Positions 18,660 through 28,627 of a DNA stretch of 64,000 nucleotides are shown piece after piece. Location of the stretch: the NCBI GenBank assembly GCA_020348985.1, contig CP070761.1:830324-894323 (forward strand). Direction: 5' to 3'. Both the position numbers and the translations under genes were made by a program. Below the pieces are notes generated by a model that made no database searches, was not told where the DNA came from, and worked only from the letters and a program-made list of their open reading frames with translations. The number at the start of each line of letters is the position of its first letter. Position 1 is the first letter of the stretch. Source of the stretch: Candidatus Thorarchaeota archaeon. Its GTDB lineage: Archaea; Asgardarchaeota; Thorarchaeia; Thorarchaeales; Thorarchaeaceae.

Positions 18660-20594
18660 CTACTTCTCTTCAACAGCGTCCGAATCGTCACCCTCATCTT
18701 CTTCGGGCTCCAGACTGTCCTTCAACAATGCATTCAATTCATTTGTCAAGTCTCGAGTCTGTGACTTCAACTTGAACCGTGTTGCAGTATTGAGTGCCTG
18801 CTGTATAGCTTCAACCAGTCTATCCAATTCTGCCTTCTGTTCGGCACCTTCGGTCATAGAGAAAATTTCCGCCTTTCTTTTTGCCATCACACCCAATAGA
18901 CCTTCAATGGCGGCCAAGGCCTCCTCACGGCTTGTGAAATCCGCCTCAACTTTGTCGTCAGAGGCCTCGATGATTCTTGATATCTGCCCGAAGAGCCCTC
19001 GATATTCATCAAGAGAGGATGACAGAATACCTTCAACTTCACTGTCATCGTCTGCTTCTTTCAACCGTTCTTCTATTTCAACCATGGCCCGCTCGAGGAA
19101 GCCTCTCCGCTCTTCTAGACTCGTCCGTCTCCTCTCCATCCATCGCCACTCACTCCCGATGCTGTGAGTCAAAGCAAGGGCCTGATTTACTTTCTCTTGA
19201 AATTTGCCCAGTTTGGCCTTGGCATCTTCAAGATCTGCTTCCAATCCGTCTGCAATGTGTGAGAGCTGGTAGCTCAGTATATTGTCTGCTTGAGCCTCGG
19301 CAAGGACTCGAGCTTCTTTGAGGGCACGCGCTGCTGCAGTCCACAATGCCTTCACTTCATCATCTGCAGCGGCGGTTCGGCCTTTCATGTCGAGTTCATC
19401 CGAAAGCTGCTCTACTTCTTCACTGAGCTTCTTAATCTCTCCAATCTTGGATCTCAAGAGAGCTCTTCCCAGCCTTGTGTTAAGTTCGGTTGTCAGCCGC
19501 TGACGTTCATCCGGCACTTCCATCAGAGCATGTGTATTGTCAATTAGGAGCTGAAGCGCATTCTCAAACTCTGTGACCGACTCTGGATATTGCGACTGCT
19601 GAAAGAGCTCATCTCCTCGCGCCTGCAGAATCAGTACTTCTTCGAGAACGTCGTACGGCGACGTTCTAAGTAGAGTGGCGCCATAGCCAGAGACTTCCTC
19701 AGCCATTAGGTCGTGTGGACGGTCGTCAAGCATCACTCTGATGATTATTATTCCATCTGAACTTGCAGCGTACACGTACTCGCGGTCAGCAATCGCCCAT
19801 TCAAACTTCACGCCGTTGATCCTGAGCTGACCAACTTCAGTTCCTCGAGTCAAGTCCCATATAGTAAGATAGGATTGAGCAGAAGCAACAACAAGGTATG
19901 GGTATGTAGACCAAATCGATGCTACGGGCACAGATTCCGTGGGAACAAGCGTGTTAACGAGTTTCCATTCTACGCGGTCCCAGATTTTGATTTCACCAGT
20001 GCCCGTACCAATGATTATGTACTCGTTATTTCCTGATGCAACGACGCCTTTCTCCTTGTCTAGTTGCGCAATCTCAGTGGGCGCAGATGTTGTTGCATGT
20101 TTCCATACCACAGGTGCCTCCTTCTTGGCGGAGGTGCAGATCACCTCATCATCTGACCATAGCGTCGTTAAATCGGCCTTGTGCAGCTGCCAACTTGAAG
20201 TCTCATGGGTGTCCTTCTTTATCGACACCAGACGACCTTCGCTAGCCCCAACATAGAAGCGATCACCTTGTAGTGTTGATGTGATGGCCTGATAGGAGAG
20301 TTCAAACCATCCAATCATTCCAAACTCGCCTTTTCTCCAAACGTAGACACGTTTCTCACATGTGGCAAAGACTTGCTCCTCGTCAACATGAACTGCGCTT
20401 GGAGGTGAACTTGTCTCTCCGAGGACAGCAACGGGTTCCCAGTCACTTTTTGAGAAGACCCGTACTCTCCGGTCTCTGCAAGCAGCGTACAGATAGTGCT
20501 CATCGTACGTCAGATGAACGGCGTCAGCCTCCAGGGTGGTCACTATATCTGGTCTAAGAGGTAGCGTTTCATCTCCGGATGCTTGACCAGACAT
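18660..20594 (-). CDS. WD40/beta-propeller + MIT/TPR-like helical bundle + coiled-coil protein
   Basis: N-half WD-like blades (VRVF, VYVW, EIKIWD, LTIWD); central three-helix motif QYPESVTEFENALQLL...RLGRA; helical C-half; acidic tail. Confidence 0.75.
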   Translation of the reverse strand: MSGQASGDETLPLRPDIVTTLEADAVHLTYDEHYLYAACRDRRVRVFSKSDWEPVAVLGETSSPPSAVHVDEEQVFATCEKRVYVWRKGEFGMIGWFELSYQAITSTLQGDRFYVGASEGRLVSIKKDTHETSSWQLHKADLTTLWSDDEVICTSAKKEAPVVWKHATTSAPTEIAQLDKEKGVVASGNNEYIIIGTGTGEIKIWDRVEWKLVNTLVPTESVPVASIWSTYPYLVVASAQSYLTIWDLTRGTEVGQLRINGVKFEWAIADREYVYAASSDGIIIIRVMLDDRPHDLMAEEVSGYGATLLRTSPYDVLEEVLILQARGDELFQQSQYPESVTEFENALQLLIDNTHALMEVPDERQRLTTELNTRLGRALLRSKIGEIKKLSEEVEQLSDELDMKGRTAAADDEVKALWTAAARALKEARVLAEAQADNILSYQLSHIADGLEADLEDAKAKLGKFQEKVNQALALTHSIGSEWRWMERRRTSLEERRGFLERAMVEIEERLKEADDDSEVEGILSSSLDEYRGLFGQISRIIEASDDKVEADFTSREEALAAIEGLLGVMAKRKAEIFSMTEGAEQKAELDRLVEAIQQALNTATRFKLKSQTRDLTNELNALLKDSLEPEEDEGDDSDAVEEK

Positions 20595-20767: not shown

Positions 20768-20810
20768 TTTAATAGAGGCCCGTTAGATGTCCCATTGCTC
20801 ATTAAGGAGG
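20768..20810 (+). promoter_or_regulatory. Putative TATA box (TTTAATAG) and GGAGG SD of the tubulin-like operon
   Basis: TTTAATAG at 20768-20775; AGGAGG at 20805-20810, 8 nt before an in-frame TTG at 20819. Confidence 0.5.
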
Positions 20811-20818
20811 ATGGTTAT

Positions 20819-23518
20819 TTGACATCAGCTCAAGAATGGAGAAGAAGACTGGATAAGCTCTCAGGATTGAAGGACCATCTTACATCGATAAACCCAGGTC
20901 TCGAAGAACAAGCAGACAGGGTCCTTCGAGGTCTCTATGATATTTACGCTAAGATATCAAAACTAGATAGCGAGCTAGGCAGCACTTCAGGAGTGAGCGT
21001 CCTGAAGAAGAGAAAGATTCAGAGCAGCATAGAATCAGGTCTAGGTGAGCTCGAGAACGAGTTTATGAAGGCGGTTCGTGACCTAGGCGACCTAATGCGA
21101 AAAGAACAGAAGGCGGTTCTTGAAGTACTACCTCAACTACAGAAGATCAAAGAGAAAGAGGCCAAGGCTCTTGTTGGAATCAAGTTTCCGTCAATAGCAG
21201 CAGGAGACATGAAAGATTTCGAGGCGCTTCTGTCCTATGGAGAAGACTTCTCGAAGAGCTACACAGGGCTTCATCAAAGCCTGTCCAGAGAGGTTCAGGA
21301 CAAACTGGATGAAAACAAGAGGACTTTGGAGACATATGAGCGCCATGTGACCATTGACCGAAGCAAAGTGACAACAACTGCGTCCGTGGAGAATGTCATG
21401 GGCTCAACCATTCCCGAGTTGATCACAGTATTCGACAAGTTGAAGTCTGAGACAGAGTTCTTGGACGGCCGCAAAGACGAAGTCAGAAGGATGATTGGAG
21501 TATCACTCATTTCCGAAGTTGAGTCCCTCGAAGCTTCAAGCGACACTGCAGCTAGATTTGGACTCGAATTGCCAATGGACTTCTCAAAGCAACTCAGGAC
21601 CCTGGCTCGCGATGCGGCCAGTGCAACAGATCTAACGACTCTAGTAAGCCTTGAGAATCAGCTGCAGACTTCAATCCTCAAACTGGCAAATATGTTGAGA
21701 GACAGAATCATCAATATCAAACACGAGGTAACCACGAAGATAGTAGAGGGAGGAATCCCAACATCTTCAGATGTTATACCTGAGGCACCACATCTGGCTT
21801 CAGACGAGGAGGATATTGCTAATCTCCTTGCGGCCTACCAGAGAATGGTCGAATGGAGTGGACAAGTCCAGGTTGGACTAAAAGACACGATAGAAGAGGT
21901 GCTTGAGGATATCGAGAGAGCCACAGAACATCCAGAGGATGCTGGAATAAAGGATATTGTTTCAGTGAGGGAGTTCCTTGCTGAAGCTAGAAAGACCCTG
22001 AAGAAAAGCGAAGTCGATGACATGATCAAGACATATCTTCGCGCAAAATCGATGCAGGAAGAGCAAAAGAAGAACATCACTGACAAGATTAGGGCGTACC
22101 TGGCCAGGTTCAACGAGCTGGCAACGTCAGCAGATAGAGTCCTGGACTACGCCCAGCTTTCGAAGAAGGCTCCTAAAGTTGAGGAGCTCGAGGGAGGCAT
22201 CGTCCACCTACTCCAGTCTCTGACGAGTCTGAAGGAAGCTGTTGAAAGTGGAGTAGCGACCTTCAGAGATGCTTGTCAACAAGAGATTGATGCAATTATC
22301 GAGGACCTACAGACGATAAAGCCGGTCTATGCAGAGATTTTCATGCCAATCGTTGTGGACCTTGAGGAGGGCTCGGGCCGGATTGCTAAGATGGACGAAT
22401 TCGCTGAGTTGCGGTCTGAAATGCGCTCGATAAAGGACTCCATACTCGTGAAGGCGAAGGAGGCGCTGGAGAACCTGCGCTATAGACTTGGGGTCAAGAT
22501 AAGATTGGCCGCAGCTAAACTGATGGGCGCAGGCGTGGAAATACCAAAGGAAGTGCAAGAGGCAATCAGCGAACTCAACAATGTAGGAGTGGCAGCTGAG
22601 AATGTCTTCAGCCTGCCTGCAATTGCACGAAAGATGATAGAACTCTACGAGAAGAACATCACTGACAAAGTGATAGGTGCCCTTATTGGAGAAGCACAAG
22701 CGCTTGTGAAATCCTTTGAGCAGGCTACAACCATTGGTGTTGATCTTTCGAAGGAAATGAAGACGCTTCAGAAGATAGTCAGCGATCCACCAGATGAGCT
22801 TGAGGAAGCTGCTGATGCCTTTGACAAAATGAGAGGGCTAACAACCTCCGATGCAGTACAAAAGAAGATCAAAGAACGTGCCAATGAAGCGAACTCTCAG
22901 CTTGAAGAAGCAATCTCGATATTTGAAGCACAAGGTCTCTCTGACTTCGTTTCTCGTTTGCGCAGTCTTCTTGAGAAGGTGCCAGAGCAGCTCGAGAGGG
23001 GCACTACACATGTGAACGAAGCACTTGAGGTTTGCCTAACGTTGGCAACCGTCCAGCAAGAAATGCTTGGCGTGATAAAGGACATCGCCAAGAAGGACGG
23101 AGAGGAACATTCGAAGGATCTCAAGGAAAAGAGTCAACGCTACTCTACTATTGAGAAGGTCTTTGAGAAGCACCCTGATGACTTCAGCAAGATAATCTAC
23201 CCCGTCTCGAGAATCCGGGAGCTAGAAGGACTTCTGGAAGAGGCAGATATGCTCGACCAAGCAATGACATACTTCAACGAGCTGAAGAAGCTTAGAACCG
23301 GTTGGATTGACAAGGCCGAGAAGATGGATGATTGGCACAAAACACTCAGGATGTACTTGACAGGATTTTCACCTGCTGCAAGCGCGGATGACCGTGATAA
23401 ATTCATTGAGGATGCCATCAAAAAGATAAAAGAAACGTTCAGCAAAGAGGACATAAGCACATACCTCTCATGGGCTATCAGAGTCCTTGCTGAAACAATG
23501 GTAGAATCACGCACTTAG
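20819..23518 (+). CDS. Large all-alpha/coiled-coil protein (~900 aa), function unknown
   Basis: E/K/L/A-rich heptad-like composition; no TM and no P-loop seen. Start moved from 20795 to 20819 on the basis of the SD. Confidence 0.8.
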   Translation: MTSAQEWRRRLDKLSGLKDHLTSINPGLEEQADRVLRGLYDIYAKISKLDSELGSTSGVSVLKKRKIQSSIESGLGELENEFMKAVRDLGDLMRKEQKAVLEVLPQLQKIKEKEAKALVGIKFPSIAAGDMKDFEALLSYGEDFSKSYTGLHQSLSREVQDKLDENKRTLETYERHVTIDRSKVTTTASVENVMGSTIPELITVFDKLKSETEFLDGRKDEVRRMIGVSLISEVESLEASSDTAARFGLELPMDFSKQLRTLARDAASATDLTTLVSLENQLQTSILKLANMLRDRIINIKHEVTTKIVEGGIPTSSDVIPEAPHLASDEEDIANLLAAYQRMVEWSGQVQVGLKDTIEEVLEDIERATEHPEDAGIKDIVSVREFLAEARKTLKKSEVDDMIKTYLRAKSMQEEQKKNITDKIRAYLARFNELATSADRVLDYAQLSKKAPKVEELEGGIVHLLQSLTSLKEAVESGVATFRDACQQEIDAIIEDLQTIKPVYAEIFMPIVVDLEEGSGRIAKMDEFAELRSEMRSIKDSILVKAKEALENLRYRLGVKIRLAAAKLMGAGVEIPKEVQEAISELNNVGVAAENVFSLPAIARKMIELYEKNITDKVIGALIGEAQALVKSFEQATTIGVDLSKEMKTLQKIVSDPPDELEEAADAFDKMRGLTTSDAVQKKIKERANEANSQLEEAISIFEAQGLSDFVSRLRSLLEKVPEQLERGTTHVNEALEVCLTLATVQQEMLGVIKDIAKKDGEEHSKDLKEKSQRYSTIEKVFEKHPDDFSKIIYPVSRIRELEGLLEEADMLDQAMTYFNELKKLRTGWIDKAEKMDDWHKTLRMYLTGFSPAASADDRDKFIEDAIKKIKETFSKEDISTYLSWAIRVLAETMVESRT

Positions 23519-23536: not shown

Positions 23537-24922
23537 ATGCAGATAGCTGGCTCAAAAGTAGCTGAAGACGAAACGACAAAGGCGGCAGAAGTCTTTGCCA
23601 TCGGAGTGGGCGAATGCGGCTCGAACATCGTGGGATCCTATCTCAAAACAAGCGCAGACAAGAGATTGCCATCGCGTGTTCGCGGATACCTCCTCATGAA
23701 CACCGATAGAGCAGACCTGACAAAGGTGCGCTCAAAGTACGAGATACCGAAGGAAAACACCATGCTCTATGGTGATAGCGAGATTGGTGTTGGTGGCCGG
23801 TTCATGGATGGCTACAACTCCGTCATGGAGTCAAAGGACATCATCTTCGATCAATTGGCCAACCTAGGATTTGAAGGAGTATCAGGATTCTCAATCTTTA
23901 CAAGTCTTGGTGGAGGAACTGGCTGTGGCGGGACACCGGCACTCATTGAATTGCTGAAACAGAGATTCCAGGAAGAGGAAGGCAGAAGGATATTTGTCTA
24001 TGTGATTGGAATCCTGCCTTTCGAGGGCCAATCAAGTGAAGCTCTCAACTCCATATGGGCTGTGTCCAGACTTCTTCGGGCCCAGCTTCAGGAAAGAGGG
24101 GCCGACCTGACTATTCTCCTGTCCAATAGGACCATGCTGAAGAGAATTCTGACTTCTAGAAGAGGCGAGAGCGTGGACTACCTTCAGAGGGAACTCTCAG
24201 TGGACATTGCCGACGTAGATTCTATTCAGACAATGGTACCATCGACTATCGATGAGGGTGGTGAGGCAGAGCTGAGGACTGAGCAAGCGTTTGTCGAGCT
24301 CGTCAATCCACTGGCACTAGAAGTAGTTGAGTCGATGCTATCACCAGGCGTGTATGAGGGCAGCAAGGATGTCTTCCCAACAACGGACCTTGCAGACTAT
24401 GCAAGGAAACTGGACCCGGTTGTTGTTCCTGCACTCTACACGGATGTGGGTTTAATCCCCGACGCTGGCAGTATGCCCAAGCAAATTCGGGCCATGATTG
24501 ACTACGCAGTGAGAGAGTGCTCTTATGCTGATGTCGGAGACCAACCAAATGCTGAAAGTGTCTACTATGTCCTAAGTGGACCTAGAAACATCTCGAAAGC
24601 AGAACATGGGATGCACCTGAAAGAAGCACTTGACAAGTTCATTGCCCCAGGTGCGGCGATAACACCCTGCTATGTACAATACCACACTCCTGAGAGTCCG
24701 ACCAATCTTCTGGTCTTGCTTGGTCTTCCGAAGATTCCTGAGCTGGCTCAGATTATCAACGAAGCCACTCAGCTGGTTAATCTTCACAGCGGAGCGTCCC
24801 CGCTAAAGCAGGGATGGTTTATGAGATCGAAGGGAGTTCCTCGTAAGGAACTTGTGAGTGCCATTGCGGACTTTCGTGAGTTGTTCAGCTACTACATGCA
24901 GCCTTCTGGAGCACAGGAGTAA
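23537..24922 (+). CDS. Divergent tubulin/FtsZ-superfamily GTPase with tubulin-like C-terminal helices
   Basis: T1 GVGECGSNI, T2 NTDRADL, T3 GVGG, signature SLGGGTGCGG, T5 GILPFEG, T7 TTDLAD; C-terminal W..GVPRKELVSAIADFRELFSYY. Confidence 0.92.
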   Translation: MQIAGSKVAEDETTKAAEVFAIGVGECGSNIVGSYLKTSADKRLPSRVRGYLLMNTDRADLTKVRSKYEIPKENTMLYGDSEIGVGGRFMDGYNSVMESKDIIFDQLANLGFEGVSGFSIFTSLGGGTGCGGTPALIELLKQRFQEEEGRRIFVYVIGILPFEGQSSEALNSIWAVSRLLRAQLQERGADLTILLSNRTMLKRILTSRRGESVDYLQRELSVDIADVDSIQTMVPSTIDEGGEAELRTEQAFVELVNPLALEVVESMLSPGVYEGSKDVFPTTDLADYARKLDPVVVPALYTDVGLIPDAGSMPKQIRAMIDYAVRECSYADVGDQPNAESVYYVLSGPRNISKAEHGMHLKEALDKFIAPGAAITPCYVQYHTPESPTNLLVLLGLPKIPELAQIINEATQLVNLHSGASPLKQGWFMRSKGVPRKELVSAIADFRELFSYYMQPSGAQE

Positions 24923-24939: not shown

Positions 24940-25998
24940 TTGTCTGAATCGATTAATCTCGAAGAGCTCGTGGACAGACTTCTTCTAATTGCTACACTAA
25001 ACTCAACCCTCGTCCATTTCCTCCTGAGCTCGCAGATTGAGGGAAGTGTGGACCCTGACCGGGTTGACTCTCTGACTCAAGGCCTCATGCGAACCAGGAA
25101 ATGGATGGAAGAAGCAACATTGGCAAGCGATGTCCCCGCATCCACAGCCAACATTATGAGTCTAATCGTGAAGCGATTATCTCAGATCGAAAGCCTGCTG
25201 CCCAAGCTCTCAGAGAGAGCAAAGAAGGCCGAGGCTGCCGGCACACCAGCACAGGAGATTCTGTCCATCCTTGAGGGCGATACAACCAATGTGAGACCTG
25301 TGCAATCAGTGGTTGAGTCCACAACAGGAGAAGCAGTCGTTCCGCTTGTGGAGACTGCTCCACCTCCTCCTGTTGAGCCCTACAAGAAGGTAGACGTGGA
25401 GGATGACGAGTTTGGTCTTATTGGCCAGACAGAAAGAATGATTCAACAGTATTCCAATCGATGTCACATCTTGTTGCCGCTCTTCTGGCTAGAGGTTGTG
25501 CGTGAGCTTCACAAATACACGTCAAATTCACCATTTGTGGGAGATGTAATAGAAATCCCGGCAAGGATAGGAGTGCGTATCGCCAAGGGTCTTCTAACTG
25601 AAGCCCCAGGAGCGCGACTTCTTCAGGACTTGGTGAAGAAGCGCCCCGCAGAGAGCTCTCTTGATCCCAATGAGAGTGAACGAATCGAGAGAGCGGTTGC
25701 CAAATACTTCACGGGGGTCGAAGGGATTCTCAAGGGTGACTCACCCAATCCGAATGACAAACTTGGAGAAGCCCAAACTGCGCTTGACGGTTTTGACTGG
25801 GGCGGGCCTGAGCTGGAAAAGAGGATCATCAAGAGAATCAATCAGCAGGTTCAGGAGTCACTTCAGAACGCAGAGTCAGGAACGGATCCACAGCGTCAGG
25901 TGATTCATGCGGAAGTCACGAAGCTTCTATGCAAGCTTCAAGCAGCAATACTTGCTGAACCCCGATTTAGAGAGATTCTAGCTCAGATGAAGCCTTGA
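24940..25998 (+). CDS. Hypothetical helical protein, third gene of the tubulin-like operon
   Basis: GGAGG SD before TTG, 17 bp after the tubulin-like stop; two helical regions joined by a Pro-rich linker. Confidence 0.75.
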   Translation: MSESINLEELVDRLLLIATLNSTLVHFLLSSQIEGSVDPDRVDSLTQGLMRTRKWMEEATLASDVPASTANIMSLIVKRLSQIESLLPKLSERAKKAEAAGTPAQEILSILEGDTTNVRPVQSVVESTTGEAVVPLVETAPPPPVEPYKKVDVEDDEFGLIGQTERMIQQYSNRCHILLPLFWLEVVRELHKYTSNSPFVGDVIEIPARIGVRIAKGLLTEAPGARLLQDLVKKRPAESSLDPNESERIERAVAKYFTGVEGILKGDSPNPNDKLGEAQTALDGFDWGGPELEKRIIKRINQQVQESLQNAESGTDPQRQVIHAEVTKLLCKLQAAILAEPRFREILAQMKP

Positions 25999-26080: not shown

Positions 26081-27487
26081 ATGTCCGGTCTCAAGAAGAT
26101 GCTGAATCCGAGTTCCACAGCAGTTGTCGGTGTCTCCACCTCGAACCCGTTTTCGCCGGGGAATGTGATTTTCCGCAAACTATGCTTCGAGAACGATCTA
26201 ACGACGTATGCTATCAATCCAAAAGGCGGGACAGTCGAAGGGCAGAAAGTCTACAAGTCAATCCCAGAAGCCCCAGGCGACATCGATCTCGTCGTCATCG
26301 CAGTGCCATCAAGGTTCGTTCCGCAGATACTGGAGCAATGTGGAGAAAAGGGTGTCAAGGCAGTCATAGTGGTATCAGGCGGATTTGGGGAAACTGGAGA
26401 ATCTGGGCAGAGCCTTCAGACAGAAATTGTAGAGATTGCTAACTCTCATGGAATCACGATGGTTGGACCAAACTGCATAGGTGTCTTCGTACCGGACACT
26501 GTCGATACTTTCTTTCTTCCTAGCGAACGTGTTGCTCGTCCCAGACGTGGCAATGTAGCAATAGTGTCACAGAGTGGCGGATGGCTTGTTGAGCGCTTGG
26601 AGGAGTTCGCTGAAAGAGATGTGGGAATCGCTGCTGCCATCTCAATTGGGAACTCTGCACAGACCGACGTGACTGACTTCGTGCAATACTTCGGAGATGC
26701 TCCCAAAGTAGATGTCATATTGGCATACATTGAGGGATTTCGAGAGCTTGAAGGACGTAGATTCGTTGAGACGGTTCATTCTGTGGCTCGAAAGAAGCCT
26801 GTTGTTGTTCTCAAGGGTGGCGAATCTGAGGCGGGTCATCGAGCCACACAGAGTCACACTTCATCTCTTGCCGGAGATATGGCTGTAGCTGATGCCGCGT
26901 TTCGGCAGTACGGCGTCCTAAGGGCAGTTGATGAAGATGAGGTCATGGCCTACTCGAAGGTGTTCTCTTTTGGTCTTAGATACATGCATGGTCCCAAGGT
27001 TGGGGTGATGACCGTCAGCGGGGGTCATGGTGTGATTGCTTCGGATGAAGCGTCTTATTACGGTCTTGAGTTCCCTCCCTTCTCGGAAGAGCAACAGCAA
27101 GCTATGCGGGGAGTGATGACCCCGGCCTACCAAGGAATAGCGTCCTTCAGAAACCCATGTGATCTGACTGGTAGTGCTTCGGACATTGACTACGAAAGAG
27201 TGCTTGACAAGATGCTAGAGTTTGACACTATCGATGCCGCGTTGCTGCTCCTGCTTCCCTATGCCCCGGGGATATCGTTACAGATAGGAGCGAGAATCTC
27301 GAATGTAGTGAAGCGTCACAATAAGACAGTAGTAACCTATGTACCCAATCTGGACAAGTATGAAGTGATCATTAGAGGATTTGAGCTGAATGGAATCCCT
27401 GTCGCAGACACAATCGAAGAAGCAGTTCAGATGCTGAATGGAATCAGGAAGCACTGCATGTTTCTTGACAGAGAGGGGGCTAAATAG
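26081..27487 (+). CDS. acdA: NDP-forming acyl-CoA synthetase alpha subunit
   Basis: CoA-binding domain, GPNCIG, SQSGG, SIGN, SHTSSLAG (phospho-His), NPCDLTG. Confidence 0.88.
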   Translation: MSGLKKMLNPSSTAVVGVSTSNPFSPGNVIFRKLCFENDLTTYAINPKGGTVEGQKVYKSIPEAPGDIDLVVIAVPSRFVPQILEQCGEKGVKAVIVVSGGFGETGESGQSLQTEIVEIANSHGITMVGPNCIGVFVPDTVDTFFLPSERVARPRRGNVAIVSQSGGWLVERLEEFAERDVGIAAAISIGNSAQTDVTDFVQYFGDAPKVDVILAYIEGFRELEGRRFVETVHSVARKKPVVVLKGGESEAGHRATQSHTSSLAGDMAVADAAFRQYGVLRAVDEDEVMAYSKVFSFGLRYMHGPKVGVMTVSGGHGVIASDEASYYGLEFPPFSEEQQQAMRGVMTPAYQGIASFRNPCDLTGSASDIDYERVLDKMLEFDTIDAALLLLLPYAPGISLQIGARISNVVKRHNKTVVTYVPNLDKYEVIIRGFELNGIPVADTIEEAVQMLNGIRKHCMFLDREGAK

Positions 27488-27496
27488 TCCAGGGTG

Positions 27497-28627
27497 TCAT
27501 GCGCCTTGAGTGATCTGCAGCAAGTCTATGTCAAGTGACTTCAGTGATTCTGCAAGTTCCCCGGTGATAACTAGAGGCTTCTCTGCAAGGTCTTCGACCT
27601 TCTGAGACCCTGTCAAATACATGGCAACTTTGAGGCCCTCTATCATCCGTTCTATCTCAAGTACTACGTCCAATGATGAGCCTTGAGCAGCAGGACGTAG
27701 CACCGGAAGTGCGATTCCAGCAGCCATCGCTCCCAAGCTTAGCGACTTGGCGACGTCCAACCCTGTCCGTATTCCCCCGGTTGCTATTACCGACAAATTG
27801 GTTGCATCGCTTACCATTATGATGCTAAGTGCTGTGGGGATGCCCCAGTCCCAGAATTCAATGCCCAGCTGCGCCTTTGTGTCGTCATCTTCGCGAACCG
27901 CTCTGAAGTATTCTACTGCAGACCAGCTTGTACCCCCGACACCACCAACGTCTACGCCAGACACTCCGATGCTCTCAAGCCTCACTGCGGCATCTCCTGA
28001 GATACCAGCTCCGGTTTCTTTGACAATGACCGGAATGTCAACCGATTCAACAACTGATGCAATGTTGTCTAGGACTCCTGTAGAGTCACAATCTCCTTCC
28101 GGCTGAATTGCTTCCTGGAGCGGATTCAGATGAATTGCCAATATATCCGCATCAATCATCTCAATGGCGGCTGAGGCAGCATCAACATGAGTTGCCCCGA
28201 CATTTGCTATAACCGGCACGCTGGGAGCGAAATCTCGTACAACCCGAAAAGTTTCTACGAGTGATTCGTCCTCCACCGCAGCACGTTGACTTCCCACGCC
28301 AATTGGAATTCCTAATTCTTCCGCGGCTTCTGCCAGTCGTTTGTTGATGTCAAGAGTGTCAGGATGACCTCCAGTCATTGCGGCAATCATGATCGGTGCA
28401 TCGGCACGCAGACCCAGGAAATTCACAGTGAGATCGATGGAGTCTTTGTCAATCTCCGGAAGAGCGTTATGAACCAGCTTGATGTCCTCTAGCATTGTGG
28501 AGATTCGGCTTTGGACATCTTCTTCCAAGCATATCTCAATATGTTCGATCTTTCTCCTTCGAGTCAGGGCCGCTTCATCGGAATCGTCTGTGCTTTCTGA
28601 GTCCGGAAGTGATTCGCCTCGTGTCAA
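27497..28627 (-). CDS. fni: Type 2 isopentenyl-diphosphate delta-isomerase
   Basis: RRKIEH, AMTGG, GVGSQR, HLNPLQE, KETGAG, GGTSW, GGIRTGLD. Confidence 0.95.
   Translation of the reverse strand: MTRGESLPDSESTDDSDEAALTRRRKIEHIEICLEEDVQSRISTMLEDIKLVHNALPEIDKDSIDLTVNFLGLRADAPIMIAAMTGGHPDTLDINKRLAEAAEELGIPIGVGSQRAAVEDESLVETFRVVRDFAPSVPVIANVGATHVDAASAAIEMIDADILAIHLNPLQEAIQPEGDCDSTGVLDNIASVVESVDIPVIVKETGAGISGDAAVRLESIGVSGVDVGGVGGTSWSAVEYFRAVREDDDTKAQLGIEFWDWGIPTALSIIMVSDATNLSVIATGGIRTGLDVAKSLSLGAMAAGIALPVLRPAAQGSSLDVVLEIERMIEGLKVAMYLTGSQKVEDLAEKPLVITGELAESLKSLDIDLLQITQGA

Follow-up and report, generated by a model that had tools for sequence, protein, structure and literature searches.

A CetZ-like tubulin/FtsZ-superfamily GTPase of the Asgard-specific Asg.Tub clade, encoded between the genes of two conserved helical proteins in a Thorarchaeota genome

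Introduction

The origin of tubulin from FtsZ/CetZ-like ancestors is an open question, and Asgard archaea have recently yielded genuine tubulins and microtubules. Santana-Molina, del Saz-Navarro & Devos (2023, Front Microbiol 13:1100249; PMC9871819) gave the name Asg.Tub to a new group of CetZ-like proteins from Asgardarchaeota. Here, we describe a member of this clade encoded in a 64,000-nucleotide stretch of the genome of a Candidatus Thorarchaeota archaeon (contig CP070761.1, positions 830,324 to 894,323 of the forward strand; hereafter, the window), together with the genes on either side of it. We estimate a probability of roughly 0.75 that the protein is an orthologue of this Asgard-specific lineage, non-canonical and CetZ-like, which would form a GTP-driven filament together with two operon partners.

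In that paper, four Asg.Tub sequences were sampled, and their position was unstable, with tubulins or with CetZ. Asg.Tub is basal to tubulins in the trees of its Fig. 4, and joins Halo.Tub at just 62% in the tree of its Fig. 6; the authors consider Asg.Tub nearer to CetZ, and only the artubulins candidates for tubulin ancestry. The neighbours of the Asg.Tub genes are described there as coiled-coil genes of unknown kind. A survey of CetZ proteins from the Duggin laboratory files the Asgard proteins under “non-canonical TSF proteins” (TSF, tubulin superfamily), and Brown & Duggin (2023) describe a CetZ clade that is bounded by the Thermococcales CetZs. A CetZ-related Asgard clade that tubulin phylogeneticists have used as an outgroup is probably the same clade.

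Both the clade and the idea of an intermediate, with the authors' caution, are already in print in PMC9871819. Since the clade and its ambiguous position are in the literature, the finding itself is no discovery. Relative to as much of the published account as was available, our additions are the conservation of the gene order UP-TUB-DOWN, the distribution across 400 Asgard genomes, with no overlap with true tubulins, and a structure model with its prediction of helices H11' and H12.

Results

A conserved GTPase gene of the Asg.Tub clade

The open reading frame to which an earlier, sequence-only reading of the window had drawn attention, at 23537..24922 on the plus strand, is real. It encodes 461 amino acids from an ATG start and matches PF00091 (Pfam) over residues 18-202, with an E-value of 1.6e-18 and a score of 68.1 bits against a cut-off of 33. 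The motifs quoted in that reading are all present: GVGECG at residues 23-28, NTDRADL at 55-61, GVGG at 84-87, SLGGGTG (continuing as CGG) at 123-132, ILPFEG at 159-164, ALNSIWAVSRL at 169-179 and TTDLAD at 282-287. Columns of an alignment of 35 orthologues (A1) average 59% identity, and invariant positions include G23, G25, E26, G28, N55, T56, G84, G86, G87, G125-127, G129, C130, G131, G132, N171, N197, D284 and D287. With loop residues invariant in 35 orthologues and PF00091 above its cut-off, these motifs are not the product of chance.

An AlphaFold2 model built from A1 (predicted local distance difference test, pLDDT, 81.9; predicted template modelling score 0.84) has two predicted domains joined by a core helix H7, the arrangement expected of the superfamily. 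The N-terminal GTPase domain, with loops T1-T6, comprises residues 18-204 (23588..24148, plus strand). Column identity in this domain averages 0.77 and 54 columns are invariant; the domain matches CetZ1 (4b46) at E 1e-11 in a hidden Markov model (HMM) search. The glycine-rich T4 signature, SLGGGTGCGG at residues 123-132 (23903..23932, plus strand) in the alignment of 35 sequences, was sought as GGGTG[SAT]G and is present as GGGTGCGG at 125-132, invariant in the 35 orthologues; Cys130 takes the place of the Ser, Ala or Thr of tubulin, FtsZ and CetZ (CetZ consensus GLGGGTGSGG, tubulin GGGTGSG). Between H6 and H7 lies a variable insertion, residues 205-245 (24149..24271, plus strand), which has no counterpart in the CetZ alignment. 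Both its conservation and its model confidence are low: mean column identity is 0.46 with zero invariant columns, and block-mean pLDDT is 48-67 over residues 201-250, with values below 50 just at 235-241.

The T7 loop and the start of H8, TTDLAD at residues 282-287 (24380..24397, plus strand), retain both acidic residues: P281, D284 and D287 are invariant in the 35 sequences. By analogy with the family, D284 and D287 would have a catalytic role. We take D287 to be equivalent to FtsZ D212, alpha-tubulin E254 and CetZ1 E218. Together, the sequence comparisons support assignment to the tubulin/FtsZ superfamily as a putative GTPase whose nucleotide loops and T7 loop are intact.

Orthologues were found at 50-96% identity, and all full-length matches with a taxon name are from Asgard archaea. 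Identity is 85-96% in Thorarchaeota-labelled metagenome-assembled genomes, and 50-62% in Hodarchaeales, Heimdall, Hermod and other lineages. An exhaustive HMMER scan of 1.84 billion representatives returned just two full-length clusters at 50% identity; more remote are a handful of relatives, P0128 (28-31% identity) and P0135 among them, followed by CetZ/FtsZ-like proteins at E-values of at least 1e-9. The published alignment (OLS26264.1, PWI48967.1, KXH77455.1 and OLS30664.1; supplement of PMC9871819) has the same conserved C-terminal half as our protein. Its Thorarchaeales sequences KXH77455.1 and OLS30664.1 and the Heimdall LC-3 sequence OLS26264.1 share the C-terminus LGLPKIPEL...WF.RSKG...LF.YY with the window's protein, and the end of OLS26264.1 is identical to the end of P0114, the Heimdall LC-3 sequence of our set. 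The gene is thus a real, well-conserved member of an already described clade, and nothing about the protein itself distinguishes it from the Asg.Tub family of PMC9871819.

The protein does not score as an FtsZ: NCBIfam TIGR00065 gave 30.4 bits against a cut-off of 295, and PF12327 (FtsZ_C) gave no match. The genome, a single contig of 3.16 Mb, has two further PF00091 genes at other sites, both with strong FtsZ-type scores.

The nucleotide-binding half is CetZ-like

The sequence-only reading had described a mosaic in which prokaryotic nucleotide loops are combined with tubulin-like segments. For the N-terminal domain, this description did not survive comparison with CetZ. Our CetZ alignment (A3), verified against the PDB (CetZ1 4b46 at 3e-150, CetZ2 at 4e-105, M. 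thermophila CetZ at 6e-47), has a consensus that includes IG.GQAG, GHGVG, GLGGGTGSGG, LG.LP...EG and NAARSL.TL, and M. thermophila CetZ carries GVGQCGN in T1. Hence, the motifs that had been called tubulin-like (GECG, SLGGGTG and ALNSIW..S.L) are equally CetZ-like, each occurring either in the CetZ consensus or in M. thermophila CetZ, and the N-terminal domain is not a mosaic.

Comparison of A1 with CetZ by hhalign gave a probability of 99.8% and an E-value of 2.9e-28 over 373 columns, from T1 through the C-terminus. The same comparison with Odin, Loki and eukaryotic tubulins gave 96.8% and 2.1e-10 over 114 columns around T3-T6 (columns 68-194). As judged from these profiles, similarity is far stronger to CetZ than to tubulin. 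The best sequence matches among solved structures are likewise Haloferax volcanii CetZ1 and CetZ2 (4b46 and 4b45) and M. thermophila CetZ (3zid). These canonical CetZs are the nearest sequence relatives (HMM E 1e-11), sharing GVG, GLGGGTG.GG, LP...EG and N-A/S-x-x-x-x-S-x-L with the window's protein, with no net insertion or deletion in the N-terminal domain; H11 and the junction between S10 and H11 are also common to both. They differ from it in lacking the H6-H7 insertion, about 40 C-terminal residues, the T4 cysteine and the operon in which it is found.

A tubulin-type N-terminal domain (GQxGxQ, DLEP, a long H1-S2 loop and VVEPYN) was not found: T2 reads NTD in place of DLEP, and T5 reads LPFEGQSSEALN, with LPFEGQS in place of PSP..VVEPYN. 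In phmmer alignments, our residues 18 and 89 fall opposite residues 3 and 102 of BtubB, whereas the offset against CetZ1 is constant; the protein therefore lacks about 28 tubulin residues between H1 and T3, in agreement with a remark on CetZ-type indels in PMC9871819. Tubulin_C (PF03953) had no match at E <= 1 in the whole protein and none at E <= 10 in residues 205-461, and the same model detects the Odin and Loki tubulins at 1e-12 to 1e-28. A tubulin likeness is found in T7, which follows the pattern D-L-x-[DE]-[YF]-x-x-x-L-x-P when compared with the tubulin consensus (A4).

A predicted H11'-H12 pair at the C-terminus

A further claim of the sequence-only reading was that the C-terminal stretch I400-Q455 (24734-24900) contains the tubulin-specific helices H11-H12 and aligns by eye with beta-tubulin. 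In the AlphaFold2 model, a strand at residues 390-396 is followed by helices at 401-417, 422-431 and 436-453, with block-mean pLDDT 87-90 over 401-450. We refer to these predicted helices (24737..24895, plus strand) as H11, H11' and H12. One strand followed by three helices, with approximately these lengths, is the S10-H11-H11'-H12 series of tubulin in structure 1JFF. In the model, order and lengths likewise appear similar to those of the eukaryotic alpha-, beta- and gamma-tubulins, OdinTubulin (7evl), Lokiarchaeal AtubA/B (9f6t) and BtubA/B (5o09). Column identity is 0.69 in H11, 0.74 in H11' and 0.63 in H12, against 0.64 for the C-terminal domain and 0.77 for the GTPase domain, and G396, P398, E402, A410, L413, H417, S421, W427, F428, K432, G433 and L449 are invariant (n=35).

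Foldseek placed OdinTubulin, gamma-tubulin and CetZ all near E 1e-18, so that the candidates were not separated. VIA-align gave 33.7 for OdinTubulin 7evl (model residues 17-461 on 4-425), 33.3 for CetZ 3zid (16-424 on 1-349), 32.4 for both CetZ2 4b45 (17-419) and BtubB (17-457), 31.6 for CetZ1 4b46 (17-415) and 31.2 for beta-tubulin 1jff_B (17-457 on 2-437). The superpositions on tubulin, OdinTubulin and BtubB reach residues 455-461, and the solved CetZ chains stop at 415-424; the last two helices, H11' and H12, are spanned in the tubulin superpositions only. Crystallised CetZs (CetZ2, 349 aa; CetZ1, 395 aa; M. thermophila, 373 aa) have 8-28 residues past the aligned part, too few to form H11'-H12. 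In place of such a short tail, our protein has 44 residues after H11, predicted as two more conserved helices. A tubulin-like arrangement is predicted by the model for residues 390-453. H11 itself is not specific to tubulin, since CetZ structures have it too, as judged from the superposition ranges.

The proposed alignment with beta-tubulin had no statistical support. Its register was recovered by hhalign with one extra gap, pairing WF.RSKG...L..A..D...LF.Y with tubulin HWY..eGmee.ef.eA.e....L..dY, at a probability of only 6%; a global comparison with the CetZ C-terminal profile gave 15%. An HMM of residues 386-461 alone (A2) found no tubulin or CetZ in the PDB at E <= 10, the matches being chance-level ones to a proteasome alpha subunit and an Fe-hydrogenase. 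Pfam returned nothing for residues 205-461 or 386-461. At the S10-H11 junction, the full-length HMM aligns LPKIPEL with VPRIKEL of CetZ1.

As had been noted, H12 is mildly charged and the long acidic tail of tubulins is absent. Net charge after WF..KG is -1 in our protein, whose H12 is near neutral; the range is -1 to -8 in most sampled members (with one at +1) and -5 to -12 in eukaryotic alpha-tubulins. A tubulin-like H11'-H12 pair is an interesting and plausible structural prediction.

A moderately favoured position of Asg.Tub on the tubulin side of canonical CetZ

Trees were built with IQ-TREE under LG+C20+F+G4 by posterior mean site frequencies, from sets of 96, 43 and 35 rows; the trees of the 43- and 35-row subsets were rooted on FtsZ, and approximately unbiased (AU) tests were run on these two subsets. 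These sets are without artubulins, Halo.Tub and gamma-, delta- and epsilon-tubulins, and Thermococcales CetZs were not identified in them by name.

The 96-row tree recovers Asg.Tub as monophyletic (100/100) and separate from canonical CetZ (96/82), with weak support (51/90) for joining it to the tubulins. In the 43-row tree, the sister of canonical CetZ (98/93) is a clade with 98/92 support, comprising the P0135 group, tubulins, a group that we call grpX, and Asg.Tub. Inside this clade, a 94/86 node places the tubulins (100/100, stem 1.6) beside grpX plus Asg.Tub (94/82). When only FtsZ, CetZ, Asg.Tub and tubulins are included, the split between Asg.Tub plus tubulins and CetZ plus FtsZ has support of 97/95 and a length of 0.78. 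An exclusive clade of Asg.Tub and CetZ was disfavoured by AU tests (-17.1 lnL, p 0.005 with 43 rows; -8.3 lnL, p 0.039 with 35 rows; lnL, log-likelihood), as was a clade of all CetZ-like groups without tubulins (-11.4 lnL, p 0.026), a group that was named after the tree had been seen.

Asg.Tub is therefore outside the canonical CetZ clade in both the larger and the smaller set (96/82; 98/93), and the tubulin clade (100/100, stem 1.15-1.6) also excludes it. Robust nesting inside FtsZ or CetZ, which the sequence-only reading had named as fatal to its proposal of an intermediate between FtsZ/CetZ and tubulin, was looked for in these maximum-likelihood trees and did not appear. The trees favour the tubulin side; direct sisterhood to tubulins, in contrast, was not borne out. 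Since the stems are long (1.6 for tubulin, about 1.2 for Asg.Tub), long-branch attraction can give this grouping. On balance, the alignments moderately favour a position of Asg.Tub on the tubulin side of canonical CetZ, in agreement with Fig. 4 of PMC9871819; Asg.Tub would not be the direct sister of tubulins, and long branches may affect its position.

Several relatives in these trees deserve comment in their own right. P0128, P0140 and P0178, distant relatives at 28-31% identity, have GGTGCGG, ILPF, LLSN, VNP, DL.DYA.KLDP and LG.PKI.EL as in Asg.Tub. They form its sister group, at 95/78 (the 96-row tree) to 99/98. The gene for P0128, on a Logan contig of SRR7811641 (L033), lies downstream of SMC-ScpA and dihydroorotate dehydrogenase genes and has no UP gene. 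P0128 was not found in 400 Asgard genomes, where only cross-hits to Asg.Tub were seen. grpX is a 100/100 clade of tubulin-superfamily proteins of 400-450 aa (P0137, P0139, P0141, P0147, P0153, P0163, P0165, P0170, P0171, P0175, P0179, P0181, P0191 and P0198). We considered whether grpX is the published Halo.Tub and rejected this, as members of Halo.Tub are 540-630 aa long. P0176 (WP_371837179.1; 438 aa) is from Microbulbifer epialgicus, by name a gammaproteobacterium. It matches Tubulin at E 3e-49 and Tubulin_C at E 5e-6, and falls inside the tubulin clade beside eukaryotic alpha-tubulins (98/91). Either bacterial tubulins would extend beyond Prosthecobacter, or this is a case of contamination or gene transfer.

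Two genes for helical proteins accompany the GTPase gene

The GTPase gene is the middle one of three genes on the same strand, with spacers of 18 bp upstream and 17 bp downstream. The upstream gene, UP (20795..23518, plus strand), encodes a 907-aa protein that is mostly helical by composition and weak matches. UP has no Pfam family above cut-off and no relatives outside its own cluster in the ESM Atlas; its family HMM gave only weak matches in the PDB (E of at least 0.002), to helical proteins such as apolipoprotein A-I. The downstream gene, DOWN (24940..25998, plus strand), encodes a two-domain helical protein of 352 aa. In its AlphaFold2 model (pLDDT 82), residues 7-100 form a three-helix bundle and residues 150-352 a well-defined all-alpha domain, with a Pro-rich, disordered linker (106-142) between them. 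No Pfam match was found for DOWN, and no convincing relative by ESM Atlas, family HMM against the PDB, Foldseek or a wide VIA-align search, in which the N-terminal bundle filled the match list and the C-terminal domain was barely covered. For both partners, the searches gave just generic three-helix-bundle or amphipathic-helix matches.

The arrangement is conserved. A homologue of UP adjoins the GTPase gene at 19/19 loci and one of DOWN at 18/19, with gene order, strand and close spacing all preserved. These loci come from at least nine GTDB families and include the second, paralogous copy of several large genomes. UP homologues share 16-59% identity and are 873-1326 aa long; for DOWN the values are 24-66% and 293-602 aa. 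UP and DOWN correspond to the coiled-coil neighbour genes described for Asg.Tub in PMC9871819. Prediction of a complex between the GTPase (A1) and DOWN (A5) gave an ipSAE of 0.00 in both runs, a result to which we attach no weight either way.

Head-to-head with the operon, about 200 bp away, is a gene for a 644-aa protein (18660-20594, minus strand) with a WD40 beta-propeller, a TPR-like (tetratricopeptide repeat) hairpin and a long acidic coiled-coil tail. We rejected this divergent gene as a member of the module: it is absent beside the operon in the three loci that were annotated with wide flanks (L004, L006 and L008), so any link to the module is lineage-specific at most. Downstream of the operon are two ordinary metabolic genes. 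One (26081-27487, plus strand) encodes a CoA-binding, succinyl-CoA-ligase-like protein of the type of the ADP-forming acyl-CoA synthetase alpha subunit; the other (27497-28627, minus strand) encodes a protein of the FMN-dependent dehydrogenase family. In two distant lineages (L004, 102-4280; L008, 749-3843), the genes immediately upstream of the operon include Arf/Ras-family small GTPases and MoCF_biosynth (PF00994), and the L004 region additionally has a CDC48-type AAA ATPase.

Distribution among Asgard genomes

With the family profile, Asg.Tub was detected in 124/400 genomes of Asgard species, usually with one copy per genome. It is present in 74/85 genomes of the family to which our genome belongs, and in 20/22, 15/19, 5/5 and 4/4 genomes of four others; in the same 400 genomes, the profile found none in one family of 135 genomes, nor in several others. 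True tubulins, recognised by Tubulin_C, occur in 8/400 genomes from four families, and 0/8 of these have Asg.Tub. Because the genomes are related and many are incomplete, we treat this complementarity as a lead, without statistical weight.

The true-tubulin loci (L009-L020) are in genomes G047, G138, G298, G299 and G301-G304: four copies are in one 6-Mb single-contig genome, and each of four small genomes (1.3-1.4 Mb) has one. Eight large genomes of a single family, f11 (G057, G061, G067, G068, G072, G073, G074 and G077), have a second, more divergent copy of the GTPase gene (441-452 aa, E ~1e-204). In G067, the second copy (L046, G067:C1:2894300-2903800) has its own UP-like gene, of 1140 aa, and no homologue of DOWN by BLAST.

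Discussion

What might the products of this operon do? By analogy with its relatives, the GTPase would bind GTP and polymerise head-to-tail into protofilaments, with the T7 aspartate D287 of one subunit completing the GTPase site of the next and activating hydrolysis. UP and DOWN could be scaffold or adaptor proteins that act on the filament by anchoring, bundling or regulating it. Of possible docking sites for these partners, the most plausible would be the H11'-H12 surface (WF.RSKG), which is conserved and non-acidic, or else the variable H6-H7 insertion. In tubulin, H11'-H12 is the face to which motors and microtubule-associated proteins (MAPs) bind. The three proteins may thus form a lineage-specific cytoskeletal module, apart from the two FtsZ division proteins of the same genome. 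For the mechanism only, the BtubA/BtubB/BtubC operon of Prosthecobacter provides a comparison: it joins a tubulin-family gene and a helical-repeat partner in one transcript, and the filament is stabilised by BtubC (summarised in PMC9871819). Unlike BtubC, UP and DOWN have no sequence or fold similarity to BtubC or TPR proteins, and the operon described here has one GTPase gene, not a heterodimer pair.

Several points weigh against an Asg.Tub filament with two operon partners. T4 has Cys130 where a PROSITE-type tubulin signature has Ser or Ala. The packing of the C-terminal helices comes from one AlphaFold model, and the ranges aligned in the superpositions are known by their first and last residues only; training of AlphaFold on many tubulin structures is a possible source of bias in just this part of the model. 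Neither partner has a recognisable fold or family, so the roles proposed for them are guesses. The data sets listed as containing the locus are sediment metagenomes, with no RNA run among them. Finally, the literature searched yielded no biochemistry, structure or cell biology for any member of Asg.Tub.

How do other explanations compare? One takes the protein for a true intermediate in evolution, the nearest sister of tubulin that is confined to prokaryotes, with CetZ/FtsZ-type loops and the outer helices H11-H12 already in place. The trees lend this some weight: Asg.Tub and tubulins are split from CetZ and FtsZ at 97/95, the 43-row set separates them, together with other non-canonical groups, from canonical CetZ at 98/92, and AU tests disfavour both Asg.Tub with CetZ (p 0.005, 0.039) and all CetZ-like groups without tubulins (p 0.026, for a post hoc group). 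The modelled C-terminal helices, which only the tubulin superpositions span, and the basal position of Asg.Tub in Fig. 4 of PMC9871819 point the same way. However, long-branch attraction can produce this grouping from such long stems, and the sisterhood is not a direct one, since grpX groups with Asg.Tub (94/82), artubulins are outside the set, and the 96-row link is 51/90. Moreover, the profiles are far closer to CetZ, the extra N-domain residues of tubulin are absent, Tubulin_C has no match, and the sequence similarity of the C-terminus is not significant, tubulin scoring no higher than CetZ. The Fig. 6 tree of PMC9871819, with Halo.Tub at 62%, and the placement nearer CetZ by its authors run counter to the idea as well, as does the lack of co-occurrence with true tubulins, which means that no genome shows both states. 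We regard a true intermediate as unlikely.

The CetZ-like profiles raise the converse explanation, a divergent canonical CetZ that, like haloarchaeal CetZ1, would control cell shape and morphology linked to motility by means of membrane-associated filaments. Among solved structures, CetZ1, CetZ2 and M. thermophila CetZ match best, the full-length profiles match at 99.8%, the S10-H11 junction is shared (LPKIPEL and VPRIKEL), and the Heimdall LC_3 orthologue is annotated “Tubulin-like protein CetZ” in one source. Set against this, Asg.Tub lies outside a CetZ clade that is itself supported at 96/82 to 98/93, the union is disfavoured by the AU tests, and CetZ has neither the H6-H7 insertion nor the roughly 40 extra C-terminal residues, which are predicted helical and strongly conserved. 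The gene context also differs, and PMC9871819 calls the contexts of CetZ and CetZ-like genes unrelated; the class given in the Duggin-laboratory survey is likewise a non-canonical one. A canonical CetZ is consequently very unlikely. A non-polymerising GTPase or regulatory pseudo-tubulin, such as a nucleotide switch for its large helical partner, would fit the unusual T4 cysteine, the LLSN that replaces DN in T6, and the constant pairing with a very large helical protein, which might provide the structural element on its own. Yet both T7 aspartates, whose relevance is confined to the interface of a polymer, do not vary among lineages with only 50% overall identity, and no superfamily member with intact T7 and GTP loops is known to be unable to polymerise; we consider this explanation extremely unlikely. 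Of the readings weighed here, we therefore retain that of a non-canonical, CetZ-like Asg.Tub orthologue that would form a filament with UP and DOWN.

A broader scenario is quite unlikely on present evidence, and we offer it as speculation. Asg.Tub and its few relatives might be a surviving prokaryote-only sister lineage of tubulins, in which H11'-H12 arose before the N-domain changes of tubulin as a docking surface for partners, with UP and DOWN as “proto-MAPs”; Asgard lineages would then have kept either the module or true tubulins, and not both.

Support for the tubulin-like C-terminal helices and for the position in the trees is moderate, and both remain leads. The clade is common among genomes of Thor, Hod and Heimdall type without true tubulins, with about 50% identity maintained across classes. 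This wide conservation, combined with a CetZ-like nucleotide-binding half, a predicted tubulin-like C-terminal layer and a moderately favoured position on the tubulin side of canonical CetZ, makes Asg.Tub an obvious target for purification and cryo-EM (cryogenic electron microscopy).

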